55,448 nucleotides of DNA from a virus (lineage: Duplodnaviria; Caudoviricetes). The DNA lies in the IMG/VR virus record IMGVR_UViG_3300032284_000540, positions 1-55,448 of that record; one strand, given 5' to 3'. The position numbers and the translations under genes are program-made. The notes beneath the pieces were generated by a model that made no database searches, was not told the origin of the DNA, and saw only the letters and a list, made by a program, of their open reading frames with translations. Below, in pieces: positions 20,724 through 51,688 of the stretch. Positions within the stretch are counted from its first letter, which is position 1; each line of letters begins with the position of its first letter.

Positions 20724-20742
20724 TATTTATAGCTCATAAATA
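20724..20742. promoter_or_regulatory. Divergent pair of T4-type late promoters
   Basis: TATAAATA on minus (20724-20731) toward gp48 and CATAAATA on plus (20735-20742) toward gp4. Confidence 0.8.
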
Positions 20743-23201: not shown

Positions 23202-23371
23202 GTCATAACACGCTAGAGAACTTTTATAAAGTTACTTTCGCGCTAGCTCAGCACCATAAATACTCGTTAAGTGACTTAGATAATCTTATGCCGTTCGAGC
23301 TTGACATATATGTCGATATGCTTCAGAAGTTTAATATAGAACAAGAAAAACGTAACAGAAGTACGGGTTAA
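23183..23371 (+). CDS. gp51: gp51-like baseplate hub assembly catalyst; no proper start codon, probably reached by -1 frameshift from gp26
   Basis: Manual translation: FFYVALSHNTLENFYKVTFALAQHHKYSLSDLDNLMPFELDIYVDMLQKFNIEQEKRNRSTG*. Contains the gp51 FAL.QHHKYSL...MP.E.DIY motif; its stop overlaps the next ATG (TAATG). Confidence 0.85.
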   Translation, partial: FFYVALSHNTLENFYKVTFALAQHHKYSLSDLDNLMPFELDIYVDMLQKFNIEQEKRNRSTG

Positions 23372-25947
23372 TGGCCGAACCAGTTCCAGAAGTCAAAGAC
23401 GTAAAACAAGATATTAAAAAGCCCGAAGATGGCATGAAAGCCATGGCTCGCGAAGCTGGCAATGGAACTACCGGCGGCGTGTCCAAGACTATGGACACAA
23501 TTATGAAGGCAGTAAAGTCTAACTCGACATCCCCGCGTAAGTACGAAGCTAAGACTAAGCCGGCTGGTCTACCAGAAACTGCTGCTCAAGAGATCAAAGA
23601 TACTGGGGCCGAAGTCAGAAGATTGTCCGCTTCTGTCGGGATGATCAACTACAATGTCAATAATATGTTGAACGTGGTTGAAAAGAATACTGGTCTCATG
23701 AACGTTATGATGACTCAGCTCGGCTCCATGGACTATAAGATAGATTCATTAGATAAAAAAATATCAAGTTCTGGAAGTTCTGGAAGTTCTGGAAGTGGAG
23801 GCTTAATAAGTGGCATAGTAGATGGATTAATTTCTGGATTAACTACTGAAGGGTTGCTAGGCACAGCTAGTACAGCGTTAGGAGCTGCTGGTGAATTAGC
23901 TGCTGGTACATTATTACCTATTGCTATGATAGCAGTAGGAGGGTATGGTGCTCATGAACTGTCAGAACAGGCTAAAGAAGAATTTGGCCAAGATTTTAGA
24001 GAAAAGTTACAGCCGATTCATAAAAGAGCGATGAAAGAAGGACTAACAGATATCGCTCCTCAGAACGCTGAACTACAAGAATTATTAGATAGACCGGATA
24101 AAGCACAGTTTGCAAAAGAACTCTTATCAGGAGAAATAGGATCTCCTAAAGATGTACAGAGATATGGAAAAGAAAATTTAGAAAAAATTGCTAGGGGAGA
24201 AGATTTAACTGTTAAACAGATGAGAACAGGCGGGCCCCAAGAATCTGCTGCAGTAACAAAAGCAAGAACTGAGATAGATGCGGCGCGAGTCAGGCCTCCA
24301 AAACCGACATCAGACGCTAGTAAAATAACTGGTGGCGGCGTAGGAGGAGCTGTAGGAGGAACGGATGACGACGTCTCTGGTATTAAACCATCTAAGAACG
24401 TAGACGGAAACACGAAACAAAAATTTGATACTATAGCAAAACAGGCTGCGGGTTTCGGCGATTCTATGGGAGGAATTATAACAGCGGCTCAATGGGCTCT
24501 AGAATCTGGATGGGGTAATAGTACTATAGCCAACACGTTAAATAACGAATTTGGTCAGACTGCTACTGCTTCTGAACCGGGAAAAACTTTTCCTGGAAAC
24601 TCTCTTAAATTCAAAGCTTATCAGACTAGAGAAGACGGTCGTAAAGAACACGTACAGCATTGGGCTTCAAAATATGCGAACGCTAAGACTCCGGCTGAAG
24701 CTATACAGATGCTTATAAAAGCTGGTTATAATTCAGAACCTGGCTATCTAAAAAATCTAAGTTCTGTTATTGCTAGTATGGGAATAGATGTCAATTCTCC
24801 GGTAGAAAAAGGAGCTTCTCAAGCAGGAACTGCGGCGGCGACTCCTACAGCCGGCCCAGACACTGCTACTCCGGAAACAACACCGTTAAAAGCTCCTCCA
24901 GCTCCCATGGGAGCTACGTCTGGAGCTATTCCTATACCAGCTGCAGCTGCAGCAACTCAAGCAGCGGCCGGTCCGGCTACTACTGCTCCGGATCCCGGTA
25001 CGTACGGTGTATCATCGCCTCCGGCCGGAGTAGCAAATCAGGCTGCTCTTAGTTCTCTTCCTAACGTGAAGATAGCTTCTGGAGTAAACGTAGATAAGCT
25101 AGACCCAGAATTTGCTAATAAGCTAGCAGCTGCTATACAAGAGTACGGACAACCAGTCGCTATAAACTCAGGATTTAGAGACGATAAGTATCAAGCAGAA
25201 TTGTGGGTAAGAAGTCATATACTAAGAGATCCTACAGTCATAGGAGCTGCTCCGCCGAAACAAGCTCAGAAAGTTACGATAAACGGCCGTACGTATGACG
25301 TGCCCGGCGGAGGCGGTGGTTCACTGCACAGTCAAGGAAAGGCCATCGATCTAAGTCCAGCACAAGCTCAAGACATGTCTAGGAAGGGAATCTTAAGAAA
25401 ACACGGTTTAGCTGCTCCGTTTAGCTGGGATCCTGTACATGTTCAGCTGGCCGGCGCTGGTGGAGGAGGCGACGCAGGAGCTCAACCGACAGGAGCGCCT
25501 GCTGCAGGAAGTATGAATATCTCCGGAGCCGGTGGAGTAGCGCCGGGAACTAGCTCGATATCGAACTTAGCCGCTAGTCCCAGAGGCTTCATGGGAGCTC
25601 CCGGGAGCCCCGCCATGATGGCTCAGGGCCCGTTGGGTATGGGTCTACCCAATCCTATAGGAGGTCTCAGGAGTCAGCTGGGAGCCGGTCCGTTAGGGCC
25701 GTTGATGAGCATGGTAGGATCCATGGGTAACATCGGCAATCTCATAGGTGGGCTAACGAGAGCCATCGGCGGTTCTGCTCAACAGAACAGAGGATACAGA
25801 GACGCGCCGAACCCGAACTTCGTTCCAGACAACTACTCGAGAAATCAAGTACCTACTGCAATGCCTAGCAGCAACCTTCTCAGAGAGCTGTTCGATCTTA
25901 ACGTCGGAGCTGGAATGAACCCTGCCGGATACGCGTTCGGTAGATAA
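23371..25947 (+). CDS. Tape-measure/hub (gp29-position) protein with glucosaminidase-like and M15 peptidase-like domains
   Basis: AAQWALESGWG...NNEFG...GY...PGY (GH73-like) and INSGFR...SLHSQGKAIDL...DPVHVQ (M15 Zn-peptidase-like); follows gp26/gp51. Confidence 0.75.
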   Translation: MAEPVPEVKDVKQDIKKPEDGMKAMAREAGNGTTGGVSKTMDTIMKAVKSNSTSPRKYEAKTKPAGLPETAAQEIKDTGAEVRRLSASVGMINYNVNNMLNVVEKNTGLMNVMMTQLGSMDYKIDSLDKKISSSGSSGSSGSGGLISGIVDGLISGLTTEGLLGTASTALGAAGELAAGTLLPIAMIAVGGYGAHELSEQAKEEFGQDFREKLQPIHKRAMKEGLTDIAPQNAELQELLDRPDKAQFAKELLSGEIGSPKDVQRYGKENLEKIARGEDLTVKQMRTGGPQESAAVTKARTEIDAARVRPPKPTSDASKITGGGVGGAVGGTDDDVSGIKPSKNVDGNTKQKFDTIAKQAAGFGDSMGGIITAAQWALESGWGNSTIANTLNNEFGQTATASEPGKTFPGNSLKFKAYQTREDGRKEHVQHWASKYANAKTPAEAIQMLIKAGYNSEPGYLKNLSSVIASMGIDVNSPVEKGASQAGTAAATPTAGPDTATPETTPLKAPPAPMGATSGAIPIPAAAAATQAAAGPATTAPDPGTYGVSSPPAGVANQAALSSLPNVKIASGVNVDKLDPEFANKLAAAIQEYGQPVAINSGFRDDKYQAELWVRSHILRDPTVIGAAPPKQAQKVTINGRTYDVPGGGGGSLHSQGKAIDLSPAQAQDMSRKGILRKHGLAAPFSWDPVHVQLAGAGGGGDAGAQPTGAPAAGSMNISGAGGVAPGTSSISNLAASPRGFMGAPGSPAMMAQGPLGMGLPNPIGGLRSQLGAGPLGPLMSMVGSMGNIGNLIGGLTRAIGGSAQQNRGYRDAPNPNFVPDNYSRNQVPTAMPSSNLLRELFDLNVGAGMNPAGYAFGR

Positions 25948-46226: not shown

Positions 46227-46428
46227 ACCTCTTTATGATATCGTTGTAGTTCGTTTCAAAAACAGATAATACTCTAGGCATAGAAGAGTAAGCGTCAGTC
46301 ACTAAAGCTTTCGCGAAAGGAAACGTCACGCCCTGCGACAGTGCATACAAGTCTTCTTCAGCAGCATGCTTGGCTTCTAAGCGCGCGTAAAAAAGTTCTT
46401 GATCTTTAAGTCTGACACGCGCTTCCAT
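46153..46428 (-). CDS. Possible hypothetical protein bridging primase and thyX
   Basis: 91-aa ORF filling a 150-nt gap but overlapping both neighbours. Confidence 0.35.
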   Translation of the reverse strand: MEARVRLKDQELFYARLEAKHAAEEDLYALSQGVTFPFAKALVTDAYSSMPRVLSVFETNYNDIIKRYVRNASRKASSSDQADYRGSSFSR

Positions 46429-47426
46429 CTACTAAACTCCACCGTAGCTCTTAACCCGCTGAACGTATACTCTTCTATCATGTTCTCTACCGACTGCGGC
46501 TTAAGCCCAGACAGCACCATGTCGTTGACGTCTTTCTGCTCTAGACCGTCTGGCCAGATACATATAGAGTAGCCGGCGTCTATAGCTTTCTTCATCTTCT
46601 TTACGGTATGTACAGACCTGGGTTCGTTGTCATACACTATGACTAGGTTTTTCTTATCTAGGCCTCTAGATAGAGACACTAGGTCTCCGCCGGCGGTAGC
46701 TACTGAGTTAGTCACAAACATCGAGTCTATTGGTCCCTCGAAGACATACACACGTTGCTTAAAGTCTACGGTATCTAACCCGTAGACTTTTGGAATAGAT
46801 TCGTCGACGACTATAGTTACGTACTTTGTCTTCGAAGCAGGATCTAGCGACCTACCCTGAAACGCGTGTACCTTATCTTTATATAAGAAAGGAATCACCA
46901 GCCTTGGTTCGTCTCTTTTTAAGACCGCGTCATCGAATTTGCCTGGCAACACTGCATTGACGAACTCGAAGAATCGTTCACTCTTAAATAGTTTGTAATG
47001 ATACTTGGCTGGTATTCGACGTGATACTACGTACTTCTTTATCGGGTCTTCTACGTGTAGAGAAGATACTTTTTGAAGTCTGCTCAACGGGTCAGTCTTC
47101 TGAAATACCGGTGTCGAGATCGATCTATGAGCAACCATCGATGCTTTATTCTGAGGAGCTCCCAACTTCTCGATCTTAAACTCAGTGTATAAGTTTGGAT
47201 CTAAGAACTTAATAAAATTTGGTAGCGTCATCGACGCGTTACAGTTGTGACAGAAGAACAAAGACTTTCCTTGCTTCTCGTATATCCAACCACGCGCTTT
47301 GGTCTTACTTTTTTGAGAGTCACCACATATCGGACATCTGAAATTAAAAGTATTACCAGATTTTCGTTTGAATCCTGTGAGACGATTCGAGACTAGTCCT
47401 AGATACTTCTGTTCAAGCCAATCCAT
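46377..47426 (-). CDS. gp61: DNA primase gp61
   Basis: RCPICGDS...CHNC zinc finger, FQGRSL, EGPIDSMF, YDNEPR and KDVNDM motifs. Confidence 0.96.
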   Translation of the reverse strand: MDWLEQKYLGLVSNRLTGFKRKSGNTFNFRCPICGDSQKSKTKARGWIYEKQGKSLFFCHNCNASMTLPNFIKFLDPNLYTEFKIEKLGAPQNKASMVAHRSISTPVFQKTDPLSRLQKVSSLHVEDPIKKYVVSRRIPAKYHYKLFKSERFFEFVNAVLPGKFDDAVLKRDEPRLVIPFLYKDKVHAFQGRSLDPASKTKYVTIVVDESIPKVYGLDTVDFKQRVYVFEGPIDSMFVTNSVATAGGDLVSLSRGLDKKNLVIVYDNEPRSVHTVKKMKKAIDAGYSICIWPDGLEQKDVNDMVLSGLKPQSVENMIEEYTFSGLRATVEFSRWKRVSDLKIKNFFTRA

Positions 47427-47457
47427 TACTATCCATTAGTATAAAACCGATATACGG

Positions 47458-47487
47458 ATTATACCATCGGTAAGAATGGTTGTATAC
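47458..47487 (-). promoter_or_regulatory. Early promoter upstream of primase
   Basis: GTATACA-N17-TATAAT. Confidence 0.8.
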
Positions 47488-47489
47488 TA

Positions 47490-47885
47490 TTATTTTACCA
47501 TGGTATGATAGTTAGATATGAAAGAGAACAACCAGCTCACTGCTATTGAAGCTCCTATGGCCATCCATATATACTTTTCGAAAGAGATCATTCTTTCTTT
47601 GAGCTTATCGTGTTGTTTCTTCGATTCGTCTGATAGATCTTTTATTTCTTTGAAAATGTTTTCTGTATTTTTTTCTATAGCGCCATATAGATCATTAGTA
47701 ACTACAGATATCTCAGACCTTCTTTTTTCTATGGAATCTTCTAAGTTGTCCTGTTTCTTTTCATGAATATTCAAGCGTTCTTCATGAACTGCCAGCATCT
47801 TATTGATATCACTAGAAATTTCTGTAAGACGATCTATAGCATGCTTAATACTATTATTGGCGTATGTTATTTTATTGCGATCCAT
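47490..47885 (-). CDS. Coiled-coil protein with C-terminal TM helix (XhlA/holin-like)
   Basis: LAVHEERL coiled coil, then EKYIWMAIGASIAVSWLF. Confidence 0.65.
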   Translation of the reverse strand: MDRNKITYANNSIKHAIDRLTEISSDINKMLAVHEERLNIHEKKQDNLEDSIEKRRSEISVVTNDLYGAIEKNTENIFKEIKDLSDESKKQHDKLKERMISFEKYIWMAIGASIAVSWLFSFISNYHTMVK

Positions 47886-48159
47886 CTGGAATCTTTCTCT
47901 TGAACATCGAAGAAAACTTCTTTAGTCTCTTCTTTGACAAGTCTAAGAGAGGATCGTACGTTTGAACGGGGCCAGAAGTAGAAGAAGAAGCTCCCATAGC
48001 ATTGATAGGAACCGCAGATTCCGTCTCGTTAACTACTTTCTTATCACGGTTCCTATCATATACTTTCTTATTCTTTACTACGCGCTTAGCAAAGCGTGCA
48101 TCTTTGAATAGCTCTATAGCTCTTCGTGCAGTCCTGTCTTTCTTCTTCTTGGCCATCAT
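47872..48159 (-). CDS. Small basic protein with ArfA-like N-terminal segment
   Basis: AIELFKDARFAKRVVKNKKVYDR resembles ArfA [27 protein letters not shown]. Confidence 0.55.
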   Translation of the reverse strand: MMAKKKKDRTARRAIELFKDARFAKRVVKNKKVYDRNRDKKVVNETESAVPINAMGASSSTSGPVQTYDPLLDLSKKRLKKFSSMFKRKIPDGSQ

Positions 48160-48545
48160 ATCTTCCTTAGTTGCTTTATTATATAGCCGTCTATAGGGAT
48201 CAATGCCATATCGATAATTTTCTCGTCTCGAATATTATACATCTTATCCGGCATGATATTTATCATAATCATAAACGGGATGATATAGCTAAAATAGTCT
48301 TTCATCTTCAAGTATAGTATCCTGCAGAGATGTGGTGGTTTGAATACGTTATTCAATACTATAAGATGATTTAGTATAAGCCTTTCTTTAAGCTCTTTGT
48401 TCTCTATATATCTAGTCAATAACTTCTTGATATACTTTAGTCTCTTAAGATCTTCTAAGAACTCGTCAGTAGAATGACACTGTGGATTATCATAGTGTCT
48501 AGCGGCGTATATCAAAAAATTATCATCATTCAAAGGTTCGAACAT
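48156..48545 (-). CDS. Conserved T4-like hypothetical protein
   Basis: LN.DNF..YA..HYDNPQC...EF.EDLKR.KYIK.L...LKERLILNH.IVL.NVF. Confidence 0.85.
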   Translation of the reverse strand: MFEPLNDDNFLIYAARHYDNPQCHSTDEFLEDLKRLKYIKKLLTRYIENKELKERLILNHLIVLNNVFKPPHLCRILYLKMKDYFSYIIPFMIMINIMPDKMYNIRDEKIIDMALIPIDGYIIKQLRKI

Positions 48546-48549
48546 ACTG

Positions 48550-49233
48550 TTATGATAATCTTATCTTTACGTTTCCATTGGTGTCGTAGTATAGACTCTT
48601 TACTGCTACTCCACCGGCAGCTGCTGTAGTAGAATTAGCATATGGGCCTACAATATTATAGGCTGTTTTTTGTGTTGTTCCATCAGGCCACAATAGACCG
48701 AAATTATTATCTTCTGAAAAGAATTCCCAACCAAGAGTTTTACCTGGAAAAAGAGTTGTGTTACTATTTGGTAATTGCACAATAAATGAAATATTATTAT
48801 AGTTATTCGAAGAACTATTCGAATAACCGGCAAGATATGCATATCCTGTTGTATTTGAATTTGAGGCATTACCATCAAGGCTGTATGTGAGACTTACATA
48901 TGATGTGATGTCTGTATTAGGAGCATATGTAGTATTTGCATTCACATAACCGTATAAGTCTATACCAGATGAAGGATTATTTTCAATATAATTGCCGATT
49001 AAGCCACCGCCGGGCAATTCTACATTTCCATTTGCATCAACTGTTAGCGATTTATTATTGCTATTCTTGATACTAGAACTAGAAATGGATATCGCGTTAA
49101 CAAAGTTGTTAACGGTTATGGTGCGCGTTGACGGAGCTGATGTATTTGCTTGATAGAGCACCACTAGACGATCGGTAGCTACCACGGTATTAGTCTGTGG
49201 TAGCCCCGAAGTCGTGGTTACATTATTGGCCAT
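48550..49233 (-). CDS. Putative virion structural/fibre-like protein
   Basis: N/S/T-rich; WPDGTTQKTA and AAAGGVAV..LYY...G.VKIR motifs. Confidence 0.65.
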   Translation of the reverse strand: MANNVTTTSGLPQTNTVVATDRLVVLYQANTSAPSTRTITVNNFVNAISISSSSIKNSNNKSLTVDANGNVELPGGGLIGNYIENNPSSGIDLYGYVNANTTYAPNTDITSYVSLTYSLDGNASNSNTTGYAYLAGYSNSSSNNYNNISFIVQLPNSNTTLFPGKTLGWEFFSEDNNFGLLWPDGTTQKTAYNIVGPYANSTTAAAGGVAVKSLYYDTNGNVKIRLS

Positions 49234-49252
49234 AACAAACTATCCTTGGCTA

Positions 49253-50248
49253 TTAAGTGCCAGGATAGAACGTGTTATCCGATGTAGCGTCTACCACTGT
49301 AGTCGTCAAGCCCGCAACACCCGTAGACGAGGTAGTATTCGCACCGAGAGATCCGTACGCCACTAGTGTTTCGGTCTGTACTCTACCAGATCTTCCTCCG
49401 AGAGTGACTGTAATAGTGCCACCGGTAGAGTTGGCTAGAGTACCCGAGAAAATGGCGCCGCTTCCTGCGGATGCAGCTCCGTTAGCTGCCAGTGCTGTAA
49501 ACAAGATGCTGCCGTTTATGGCGGCGTTCGTGAACAAGCCGGCATTGGTGATAGTCACGTTAGCCGTGACGAAACCACCCGTCGAGTTGGTAGAGATCGA
49601 AGCTGCGCCGTTCGAGATGCCTACGGTGCTGTTCGACAGCACGATGACGTCTGTGTTATTATATCCGGTAGGCGAGCCAGACACTGTGATAGAAGCTACG
49701 TGCTTCTCTCTGTCGAAAGACGAAGTGATGCTAGTGCTGTTAACGAAACCGCTACCTGCATTATTGACCGTGGCTGTAGATAAGCCACCAGTGGTGTTAG
49801 TAGTAATGAAAGCTGTCGCGTTGACTTCACCACCAGAGACCGTGATAGTCTCATTGTTCTGGAATCCAGAACCGCCAGAGACTGCGATAGATACGACCGG
49901 ACCGGTTCCGGCTTTGCGGAACACCCATCCAGCATGCGCCGGCCGCTCTTTAGAGTTGTTAGCAATATTATTGCTCATCTCAGTAACAGATACACCGAAC
50001 ACACCCGTAGCCAGGTTGGTAATAAACGCACCCGGAGTAGAGTTATTGAAGAGGTTGGAGTCTACGTTTGCTCTGGAACCAGGTGAAGTATTTCCGAAGT
50101 GCGCGTTGGCGGCCATCGAAACAAAATTGTCTCCGTTACCGCTACCCTTTACTAGGGCGTATACTCCCATCGGAGCGCCCGTCGACGTCTCGATCGTCGT
50201 GGTGCTATTGGCTGTTACGGCCTGATCGTTTCTACCCCATTGCGCCAT
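49253..50248 (-). CDS. Virion structural protein (MAQWG...HAGWV...RVQTETLVA family)
   Basis: Characteristic terminal motifs; late promoter elements at about 50279-50292. Confidence 0.75.
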   Translation of the reverse strand: MAQWGRNDQAVTANSTTTIETSTGAPMGVYALVKGSGNGDNFVSMAANAHFGNTSPGSRANVDSNLFNNSTPGAFITNLATGVFGVSVTEMSNNIANNSKERPAHAGWVFRKAGTGPVVSIAVSGGSGFQNNETITVSGGEVNATAFITTNTTGGLSTATVNNAGSGFVNSTSITSSFDREKHVASITVSGSPTGYNNTDVIVLSNSTVGISNGAASISTNSTGGFVTANVTITNAGLFTNAAINGSILFTALAANGAASAGSGAIFSGTLANSTGGTITVTLGGRSGRVQTETLVAYGSLGANTTSSTGVAGLTTTVVDATSDNTFYPGT

Positions 50249-50297
50249 CTTTTATCTCCTGAAAGAAATTCTTTGTGTTATTTATATTTATGATGAC

Positions 50298-50465
50298 TCA
50301 ATCGGATATAGAGTAGTCGGCTGTGTCATGGGTGACTCCTACGCCAGACTGGTCCTGATTGGCACCCTTTAAAGGGGAAGAGACCGACGTCGGAGGCGAC
50401 GGCTCGGTCTTTCCCTTCTTCTTGTTCTTTTTAGCTTCGAGGATTATCCTAGACAGTCTTCTCAT
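50298..50465 (-). CDS. 55-aa hypothetical protein (below ORF-track cutoff)
   Basis: MRRLSRIILEAKKNKKKGKTEPSPPTSVSSPLKGANQDQSGVGVTHDTADYSISD*; its ATG overlaps the upstream TAA. Confidence 0.55.
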   Translation of the reverse strand: MRRLSRIILEAKKNKKKGKTEPSPPTSVSSPLKGANQDQSGVGVTHDTADYSISD

Positions 50466-51688
50466 TAGGTTCCAGTAGCTGCCTTGAACGAGGCGTGTGA
50501 ATGAGCTAGCTGCTTGGCGTACTCTTCTTTGTCAGAAGCTTTCTTCATGTTGTTATGCATCTGCAGGGCATGGGCAGCATGCTTAGGCTCGATATGATGC
50601 TTCTCGCCGTTGTTGAACTCTACGGGCTTGGCGCCACGAAGAGAGACGGTCTTGCGTAGCTGCATAACGATATGCTCCGGGCTCTTGTCAGTAGAGGGGT
50701 CATACTCTTCCGGATCTTTATCGTCATCGTGAGCTTCATTCATCTTAGCCACGATACGGGCAGTCTCCTCGTCGGAGAGAGCTACCTCTTCTTTATGAAG
50801 TTTCTTCGACGCCATCTCGATACCCTTGTCTCTAGACGACTTTACCTTCTCAGGCGGCAACGCAGCCACTTTCTTTACGTATGAGGTTAGTGTAGACTTG
50901 CTTACCTCGTCGACCTGATCGACTTCTTCCGTAGCTTTTACTCTCGGCTCAGATGTGCCATAATTTTTGTCACCCCACTTCTTTTTAAGAGCTAATGCTC
51001 TACCAGCCTTACGTGAGCTTGAGTCTTTTGTTTTATCTATATAACGCGATGCTAGGCCACGCGAAATCTCGTCAACCTGTTCGACTTCTTCCGTAGCTAG
51101 CTTGTCATCTGTCTTAGGGTTCATGACGACTGGTGTCTTTCCACCCGTGATCTTCTTATCGTCTGTATCTTTGACGTCTTTCTTTTCCATCACTGACTGT
51201 GCAGCAGCGATTAGCGACTTTGGTAGACCGAAATTCTTTTCTGAGTTCATGACTTCTTCCTCGTCTATTATTTTTGTTTTGATTTCTGCTTGTTTCGACA
51301 ACTTTGACTTAGAACTGAACGGAGTAGGAGCCGTAGTTGGACGACCGACGTTCTCTATCTTACGGCGCTCGATCGTGCCAGAAGCTTCTTTGGCTTCGAT
51401 GACATCTTCTTCTTCTTTGATAGGAGAGTCGGCTTTTCTCTTCTCTTCGTCTTTCTTTCGCTGTTCGATCTCGGTTTCTTTCTTCTTCTGAGAATCTTCG
51501 GCCTGCTTAGCGGCGGCAAGTTCTTGGCTAGTGTTCCTAGCTGCTCCTACTTTTAGAGCGTGAGAAGAGCTACCCTTGTTATACGTAGAACGAAACTTTG
51601 AATCCGTTCCTACGCTCTTAGCCTGTGCAGTAGAAGTGGCTTCTAACAAATCACGGATGGCGTGTTCTAGGCTTCGAGTATCAGACAT
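50465..51688 (-). CDS. Internal head protein-like modular protein
   Basis: Highly charged; repeated (I/L/V)-x-E sites and EEVEQVDE/EEVDQVDE linkers. Confidence 0.65.
   Translation of the reverse strand: MSDTRSLEHAIRDLLEATSTAQAKSVGTDSKFRSTYNKGSSSHALKVGAARNTSQELAAAKQAEDSQKKKETEIEQRKKDEEKRKADSPIKEEEDVIEAKEASGTIERRKIENVGRPTTAPTPFSSKSKLSKQAEIKTKIIDEEEVMNSEKNFGLPKSLIAAAQSVMEKKDVKDTDDKKITGGKTPVVMNPKTDDKLATEEVEQVDEISRGLASRYIDKTKDSSSRKAGRALALKKKWGDKNYGTSEPRVKATEEVDQVDEVSKSTLTSYVKKVAALPPEKVKSSRDKGIEMASKKLHKEEVALSDEETARIVAKMNEAHDDDKDPEEYDPSTDKSPEHIVMQLRKTVSLRGAKPVEFNNGEKHHIEPKHAAHALQMHNNMKKASDKEEYAKQLAHSHASFKAATGT
50906..51098 (+). repeat. 31-nt direct repeat pair (29/31 identical)
   Basis: Copies at 50906-50936 and 51068-51098, 162 nt apart, encoding ATEEV(E/D)QVDE. 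Confidence 0.85.

Follow-up and report, generated by a model that had tools for sequence, protein, structure and literature searches.

A small gene upstream of the primase gene in T4-type phages encodes a free copy of the capsid cut site and N-fist

P0001 is a protein of 95 amino acids (aa) encoded on the minus strand of a 55,448-base viral record from IMG/VR (IMGVR_UViG_3300032284_000540; Caudoviricetes). The record, with a completeness estimate of 33%, was analyzed over its full length and is called the window here. We found that P0001 belongs to a family of proteins that is widespread among T4-type phages but unstudied; its members carry a free copy of the cut site and the N-fist of the major capsid protein (MCP), together with a tail rich in lysine and arginine. 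The initial annotation of the window had described the open reading frame (ORF) as an ArfA-like ribosome-rescue segment fused to a head-protein-like tail. The sequence features named there were all found, i.e., the ORF itself, AIELFKDARFAKRVVKNKKVYDR (residues 14–36), VVNE (residues 42–45) and P.NAMG...YDPLL (residues 51–72). The following parts were distinguished, using an alignment of 16 members, P0001 and its 15 homologs, which is referred to as A1:

47872..48159, minus strand: the 95-aa ORF of P0001, coordinates including the stop codon.
48025..48159, minus strand: N-terminal half (N-half), residues 1–45, a polybasic leader with 18 lysine and arginine (K+R) and 6 aspartate and glutamate (D+E) residues, as seen from A1, the composition and the predicted fold.
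48025..48033, minus strand: V43-N44-E45, an [LIV]-x-E motif with invariant E45; in T4-type MCPs the aligned position is the site of maturation cleavage by gp21.
47944..48024, minus strand: the N-fist copy, residues 46–72, corresponding to the first approximately 27 residues of the mature MCP by hhalign and BLASTP.
47875..47943, minus strand: the basic tail, residues 73–95, with 8 K+R versus 2 D+E and with K81, S83 and R88 invariant, from A1 and a composition count.

The C-terminal half (C-half) of P0001 is homologous to the cut site and the N-fist of T4-type MCPs. In the comparison of A1 with 19 T4-type MCPs by hhalign, residues 40–74 aligned with MCP residues 52–88 at a probability of 97.4% (E-value 1.2e-11), which strongly bore out the head-protein-like tail of the initial annotation. 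BLASTP of P0001 against the MCP of the related virus record G001 gave 17 identities in 32 positions (E 9e-8). The conserved positions common to the P0001 family and the MCPs are P, N, M, G, SSS, G, D and DP. VVNE had been proposed as a prohead-protease site, and this proposal gained weight, as the motif aligns with the maturation cut site of the capsid protein itself. Because of this alignment, the predicted release of a basic peptide of about 45 aa by cleavage is also a reasonable expectation.

A2, a profile of 20 short family members, was run on five large related virus records (G001–G005). In all five records, a second match was located inside an open frame of 459–483 aa, 1.5–2 kb from a gene for a Peptidase_S77 protein. 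The gene order in G005 is Peptidase_S77 protease, an acidic ORF of 347 aa and an MCP-like protein of 467 aa, and the latter matched the solved T4 gp23 with an E-value of 2.6e-81. HMMER aligned ...LFE/AAPTNSMG... of the 467-aa protein with ...LTE/AEIGG... of T4, the E of LFE standing on the E of LTE. The mature gp23 chain 5vf3_A has 456 residues, which equals 521 minus 65, and gp21 is described in a passage of PMC9546572 as removing 65 N-terminal residues of gp23. From the MCP alignment and the cut of gp23 after residue 65, it follows that residues 43–72 of P0001 represent the cut site and the first approximately 27 residues of the mature MCP.

Passages of two structural reports (PMC9546572, PMC9958956) describe gp23 residues 66–105 as disordered in the unexpanded head, where they lie inside and probably touch the scaffold core. 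According to the same passages, these residues shift to the outer surface on expansion and form the 25-residue N-fist and the N-arm, and the N-fist contacts four subunits and helps to build the Soc site (PMC9546572, PMC9958956). In gp23* the N-fist (about residues 66–91) is part of a large protein, whereas the copy in P0001 is free-standing and is followed by the basic tail only, with no HK97-fold body.

The 15 homologs of P0001 were found among 5.8 billion proteins (16 sequences with the query at E≤0.01, 18 candidates); they have 59–97 aa and show 65–80% identity. Invariant residues in A1 are E45, P51, N53, G56, S58, Y68, D69, P70, L72, K81, S83 and R88. Residues 11–38 are largely near-invariant, and conservation spans both halves. 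In comparisons of the window with three relatives, the proportion of synonymous differences (pS) was 0.65–0.90 (saturated), and the proportion of nonsynonymous differences (pN) was 0.08–0.19 in the N-half and 0.11–0.25 in the C-half. We concluded that P0001 is a real gene with purifying selection acting on both halves. Weak Pfam matches of P0001 to Circo_capsid (E 0.07) and Pantoate_transf (E 0.08) were far below the cut-offs and were dismissed. A DNA-level search of a phage collection returned only short primase matches in 10 records, and no close cultured relative was found there.

The design of the C-half was retained across more distant relatives. A HMMER scan of 1.84 billion representatives yielded 36 proteins at E≤0.001, the matches covering only residues ~40–90. 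We fetched 35 of these and combined them with the 15 proteins from the first search to a set of 50 relatives. The capsid-derived module was present in all 50 (the 35 fetched HMMER hits included), and an [LIVMFA]-x-E motif was located at most 10 residues upstream of the module in 48 of them (exceptions P0035 and P0049). Some of the relatives from the HMMER scan are stand-alone proteins of 41–70 aa, and in others the match forms the C-terminus of a longer protein (varied types, 100–406 aa); the N-terminal extensions range from none to about 360 residues. The tail contained more K+R than D+E in 49 relatives. The exception is P0047 (287 aa), which is a fusion to a head protease of the Peptidase_S77 family (T4 gp21-type; E 5.7e-17). 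It carries the module at residues 226–247, near the C-terminus, and then an acidic tail instead of a basic one. This fusion would fit a portable prohead tag. The protease fusion and the near-universal cut site favor a prohead tag over a cytoplasmic role.

A free peptide with cut site and N-fist might also compete with MCP N-termini for the scaffold core or the head protease, tune the timing of maturation or the head size, and then be degraded or lost. A passage of PMC9546572 states that contacts between the N-terminal region of gp23 and the scaffold core affect capsid length, which supports such a regulator of assembly. The family design and the conservation data fit it equally, and the C-half is modeled without regular structure of its own. 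A module that is found on a head protease and on many unrelated extensions resembles a tag rather than an inhibitor, and we consider a regulatory role rather unlikely.

The small protein matched the MCP of its own genome best, or tied for best, in all five genomes holding both genes. The scores of the small protein against MCPs were as follows:

T4: own MCP 77, best other MCP 26.
ACG-2014d: own MCP 141, best other MCP 56.
G002: own MCP 94, best other MCP 80.
G001: own MCP 84, best other MCP 82.
G003: own MCP 104, best other MCP 104 (tie).

The own-MCP signal is thus strong across lineages but weak inside the marine group. The best MCP match of P0001 was L025 with a score of 98, and the MCP of its own phage is predicted to have an N-terminus of the L025 type. 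Among 20 further records, none had both the small gene and a capsid gene, and none was more than 62% complete. A copy that tracks its own MCP sequence across distant lineages would also be expected from a decoy, i.e., an abundant copy of the MCP N-terminus that titrates a host sensor or protease of capsid-sensing immunity. Some defense systems do sense capsid proteins. However, a conserved cut site and the fusion to a head protease point to the head interior, and no defense-related neighbor or family appeared in general Pfam and PHROGs scans, which did not include a dedicated PADLOC search. We regard a decoy function as very improbable.

The gene slot of P0001 is defined by its neighbors in the window:

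48156..48545, minus strand: DUF7207 / phrog_407 gene, 129 aa, the upstream neighbor and conserved partner of the slot (Pfam, PHROGs).
47490..47885, minus strand: DUF7201 / phrog_451 N-part gene, 131 aa, the downstream neighbor (Pfam, coiled-coil region; PHROGs).
46377..47426, minus strand: gp61-type DNA primase gene (PHROGs).

The ATG of P0001 overlaps the stop codon of the DUF7207 gene 5' of it, and its last 14 nt are shared with the DUF7201 gene. The order DUF7207, P0001, DUF7201 and primase is followed by genes for thymidylate synthase and NrdA/NrdB, and a phrog_1645 virion structural protein is encoded further upstream of P0001. Based on the primase, thymidylate synthase, NrdA/NrdB and phrog_1645 context, the window derives from a T4-type myovirus. 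By our own reading, the DUF7201 protein has a hydrophobic C-terminal stretch. The phrog_451 profile (461 positions) matched the DUF7201 protein at positions 29–112 and the primase at positions 132–461 (window 46377–47885, minus strand); the two proteins are apparently fused in some phages.

A scan of viral contigs gave at least 599 pattern matches; 116 were confirmed and 80 loci were kept. A small non-capsid gene was present in 25 of these loci, and the other 55 were without such neighbors. Where the pattern had caught the module in the latter, it was located at residues 54–66 of an ORF that had 448–480 aa or was truncated by the contig end and that continued like gp23. The small gene directly followed DUF7207 and preceded the primase gene in all 25 non-capsid loci, several of which are near-identical copies from different samples and not independent cases. 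The DUF7201 gene was detected between the small gene and the primase gene in 15 of the 25. Across loci, the length of the slot gene varied between 55 and 164 aa. A diverged ORF of 50 aa (L091 1087–1239), which was missed by the profile, occupies the slot behind DUF7207 in G005 (100% complete). Its cut site, the first four residues of its N-fist and a basic tail are retained, and it has diverged in the middle. In G004 the slot is lost at the contig end. The ORF directly after the capsid gene of G005 (L083 4230–5000) looked by eye like a GIY-YIG homing endonuclease and recalls segD after T4 gene 23.

Phage T4 itself has a counterpart in this position. T4 gene 61.1 is located directly upstream of the primase gene 61 (order 61.2, 61.1, 61), and its product gp61.1 (54 aa) is annotated as a 'hypothetical protein'. 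BLASTP aligned residues 2–38 of gp61.1 with residues 57–93 of gp23 (17 of 37 identities, E 6e-9). Like gp61.1, P0001 has a leader with an [LIV]-x-E motif (I-K-E at the end of the gp61.1 leader), a copy of the MCP start with cut site and N-fist, a basic tail (Lys-rich in gp61.1) and a gene upstream of the primase gene. In contrast to P0001 with its 45-residue polybasic helix, T4 has a leader of 10 residues that resembles internal proteins: seven of the first ten residues of gp61.1 are common to the N-termini of IPII and IPIII. The window also differs from T4 by the presence of DUF7201 between P0001 and the primase. The gp61.1 protein is a member of phrog_1823; in phrog_2086 (long forms) its match lies in the C-terminal part. 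P0001 matched only phrog_3286 (E 5.1e-4) in PHROGs at E≤1 and neither phrog_1823 nor phrog_2086, because each of the two is a copy from the capsid protein of its own phage. We concluded that P0001 and gp61.1 are related by design and position, and that this relationship is traced through the MCP of each phage.

The N-terminal leader of IPII and IPIII is a capsid-targeting sequence, and gp21 cleaves these proteins, which are packaged into the head. They share with P0001 the small size, the basic character and an x-x-E head-protease site, and they are a likely functional analogy for P0001 as a targeted and processed head component. The N-terminus of P0001 differs in that it shows no likeness to the 10-residue leader, so that any targeting of P0001 would rest on the N-fist copy.

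In Synechococcus phage ACG-2014d (NC_026923.1), the slot is occupied in the order phrog_407, phrog_696, phrog_451 and primase. The phrog_696 protein (275 aa, L002 3025–3852) starts at the cut-site motif and copies the differently spelled N-fist of its own phage; homologs were found in 281 cyanophage records. It shares with P0001 the gene slot, the copy of the N-fist of its own MCP and a weak match to phrog_3286. Unlike P0001, it lacks a leader, and about 230 aa are added at its C-terminus. RefSeq labels the protein as 'major head protein', and the real gp23 homolog (L090) is located ~40 kb away. This label probably stems from the copy of the N-fist at the N-terminus.

The module is clearly derived from an MCP and could, for this reason, be regarded as a remnant without function that was left when the capsid gene was partially duplicated. 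However, synonymous sites are saturated while pN is only 0.08–0.25, marine phages and cyanophages have the slot in common, and T4 shows the same design just upstream of the primase gene. Selection and synteny contradict a remnant, to which we assign a negligible probability.

The expression context was analyzed with TATAAATA, which we take to be the T4 late-promoter consensus. The window contains 7 matches compared to 3.05 ± 1.82 expected, and 2 of 100 shuffles reached 7. Six of the 7 matches are on the minus strand, which is the coding strand (positions 20724, 28250, 35965, 40386, 41873 and 50279), and 5 of these 6 are located 27–37 nt upstream of an ORF start. The minus-strand sites are likely T4-type late promoters. 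Two sites are close to the slot:

50279..50286, minus strand: TATAAATA, 31 nt upstream of an ORF of 331 aa.
47458–47486, minus strand: a sigma-70-like site in the 63-nt gap before the primase gene.

The 331-aa ORF heads a tightly packed run, which continues with a 227-aa ORF, DUF7207, P0001 and DUF7201. In 12 of 19 related loci, TATAAATA was present on the same strand at most 4 kb upstream of the small gene. Three ORFs of 227, 331 and 407 aa (window 48550–51688, minus strand) are rich in Ser, Thr, Asn and Gly and are conserved in relatives. The 331- and 407-aa ORFs had no PHROG match at E≤1e-5, and the 227-aa ORF matched only phrog_19189 (E 0.16). An ORF of 317 aa that runs antisense to the 331-aa gene and overlaps it (49272–50225, plus strand) is probably an artefact of base composition. 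Elsewhere in the window, the central part of an 858-aa ORF (23371–25947, plus strand) resembles an endolysin (phrog_3513, E 1.6e-13).

The N-half of P0001 is limited to the close family, and other relatives have no extension or unrelated ones. L008, whose neighboring genes are 57–80% identical to those of the window, encodes a form of 59 aa that lacks the basic N-half. AlphaFold2 on A1 (mean predicted local distance difference test score 63) placed helices at residues 11–19 and 21–46 and gave no regular structure for the C-half. The N-half showed no likeness to the capsid propeptide, and the hhalign alignment ended at residue 40.

It was this half that had been compared to ArfA. Alternative ribosome-rescue factor A (ArfA) recruits RF2 to non-stop ribosomes, where it occupies the empty mRNA channel. 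By analogy, the N-half could be a peptide that enters this channel in stalled ribosomes and either rescues or jams them. We extracted the reference sequence of ArfA of E. coli K-12 from NC_000913.3 for comparison. The alignment, which had been made by eye, was reproduced with this sequence:

48046–48126, minus strand: the 'ArfA-like' stretch, residues 12–38, from the BLASTP and hhalign alignments.

BLASTP gave 19 of 55 identities with 9 gap positions (E 0.21 in a single-pair comparison), and hhalign aligned 27 columns of the P0001 family with ArfA at 52% identity. Both are short basic peptides, and the local likeness over the 27 columns comprises AIE, L, D, F, RV, KNKK, Y and R. The N-half is, moreover, polybasic and strongly conserved (pN 0.08–0.19). 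The Smith-Waterman score of P0001 versus ArfA was 43 and was equaled by 2–13 of 5000 composition-preserving shuffles, so that the resemblance exceeds a Lys/Arg bias for one pre-specified pair. The same score was reached by 2 of 2,945 unrelated 72-residue chunks of phage ORFs (maximum 48), and the best score among 186 other ORF N-termini of the window was 37. We concluded that the resemblance is at the level of chance for a partner that was picked post hoc from all known proteins.

Profile comparisons did not support the ribosome-rescue reading. The initial annotation had suggested an HMM search against the ArfA family; PF03889 (ArfA) matched none of the 16 P0001 family members at E≤10. It also gave no match in the six-frame translation of the window, and the E. 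coli ArfA control passed the cut-off. The P0001 family profile found no PDB chain at E≤10. The hhalign probability was 15.1% versus the single ArfA sequence and 15.8% versus an alignment of 18 ArfA sequences, which were chosen from the 120 listed of 726 matches and each show an identity of at least 80% to E. coli ArfA. The aligned stretch contains 20 columns in which ArfA does not vary, and P0001 shares 8 of them. The columns of A18 and G35-K36-G37 are gaps in the P0001 family, and S38 stands opposite V33 and is not shared. Hence the KGKGS motif and A18, invariant in 18 of 18 aligned ArfA sequences, are both missing from the P0001 family, in agreement with the lack of GKGS noticed before. E. 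coli ArfA itself matched no NCBIfam model at E≤10, so that NCBIfam is uninformative on ArfA membership. For residues 1–45, the ESM Atlas gave feature scores of 0.81–0.83 (noise level), structure matches to generic helices and no ArfA cluster.

A lack of profile similarity beyond a Lys/Arg bias had been named as an argument against ribosome rescue. Profile similarity was indeed absent, but the pairwise score was above that of the composition shuffles. P0001 further differs from ArfA in that its segment is fused upstream of the capsid-derived module. All 35 fetched relatives from the HMMER scan carry this module, relatives have no extension or unrelated ones in place of the N-half, and L008 does without the N-half altogether. 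Taken together, the likeness of the P0001 leader to ArfA is coincidental, and a function in rescuing or jamming ribosomes is highly improbable.

About half of our confidence goes to the reading that P0001 is a late, prohead-associated small head protein that is processed by the head protease. P0001 would be transcribed late, together with the neighboring structural-looking genes. The N-fist copy would associate with the assembling prohead by using the contacts of the MCP N-terminus, either to the scaffold core or to neighboring capsid subunits. The gp21-type head protease would then cut P0001 after E45, just as it cuts the MCP. The expected products are a peptide of 50 residues comprising N-fist and tail, whose N-terminus would match that of the mature MCP, and a polybasic helical peptide of 45 residues. 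We also predicted a complex of two G001 MCPs lacking propeptide and N-fist with the 60-aa free N-fist protein of G001; the result (score 0.01, mark 0.32) is not evidence either way.

Several points weigh against a processed head protein. We infer cleavage after E45 solely from the homology of the site. The gp21 protease works inside the prohead and the mature N-fist is on the outer surface, which makes the destination of the free copy ambiguous. In none of the five related records was a gp24-like capsid paralog found, and for this reason vacant N-fist sockets at gp24-like pentons, which we had considered as a destination, are not an obvious one. The preference for the own MCP is marginal in the marine group (84 versus 82 in G001, a tie in G003). 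The capsid gene of the phage studied here lies outside the 55-kb record (~33% complete), and the MCP comparisons use related phages. T4 gene 61.1 sits among the replication-type genes 41, 61, dam and 56, which are presumably early or middle genes, and exact TATAAATA is absent from the region of 16–24 kb in T4. The leader of P0001 resembles no other ORF N-terminus in the window (the top score was 37, for a likely spurious ORF), and a leader for targeting that is shared within the window thus has no support from the comparison of N-termini.

A literature search retrieved no description of free N-fist copies or of a function of gp61.1; the content of one paper that mentions gp61.1 was not assessed. 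The evidence removes the idea of a phage-encoded mimic of ribosome rescue. What remains is a conserved slot beside the primase gene for a mimic of the capsid protein. The N-fist copy would also account for the 'major head protein' labels of cyanophage slot proteins. New from this window are a lineage with a conserved polybasic leader of 45 residues and the related head-protease fusion.

As a tentative extension, which we consider less likely than not, self-mimicry may provide T4-type phages (T4, cyanophages and the marine or freshwater group) with a minor head component that has been overlooked. The processed peptide would start exactly like the mature MCP and occupy N-fist sites on the lattice or the scaffold, for example at the portal vertex. 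The basic tail would touch DNA, and the leaders, which differ between lineages, would be cargo that the tag brings into the head. If this is true, the conserved polybasic helix of 45 residues would be such cargo, and it could leave the head along with the DNA to act in the host. Since T4 gene 61.1 shares the design, the best-understood phage offers a direct way to test what such self-mimics do for the assembly or stability of the head or for the delivery of cargo.

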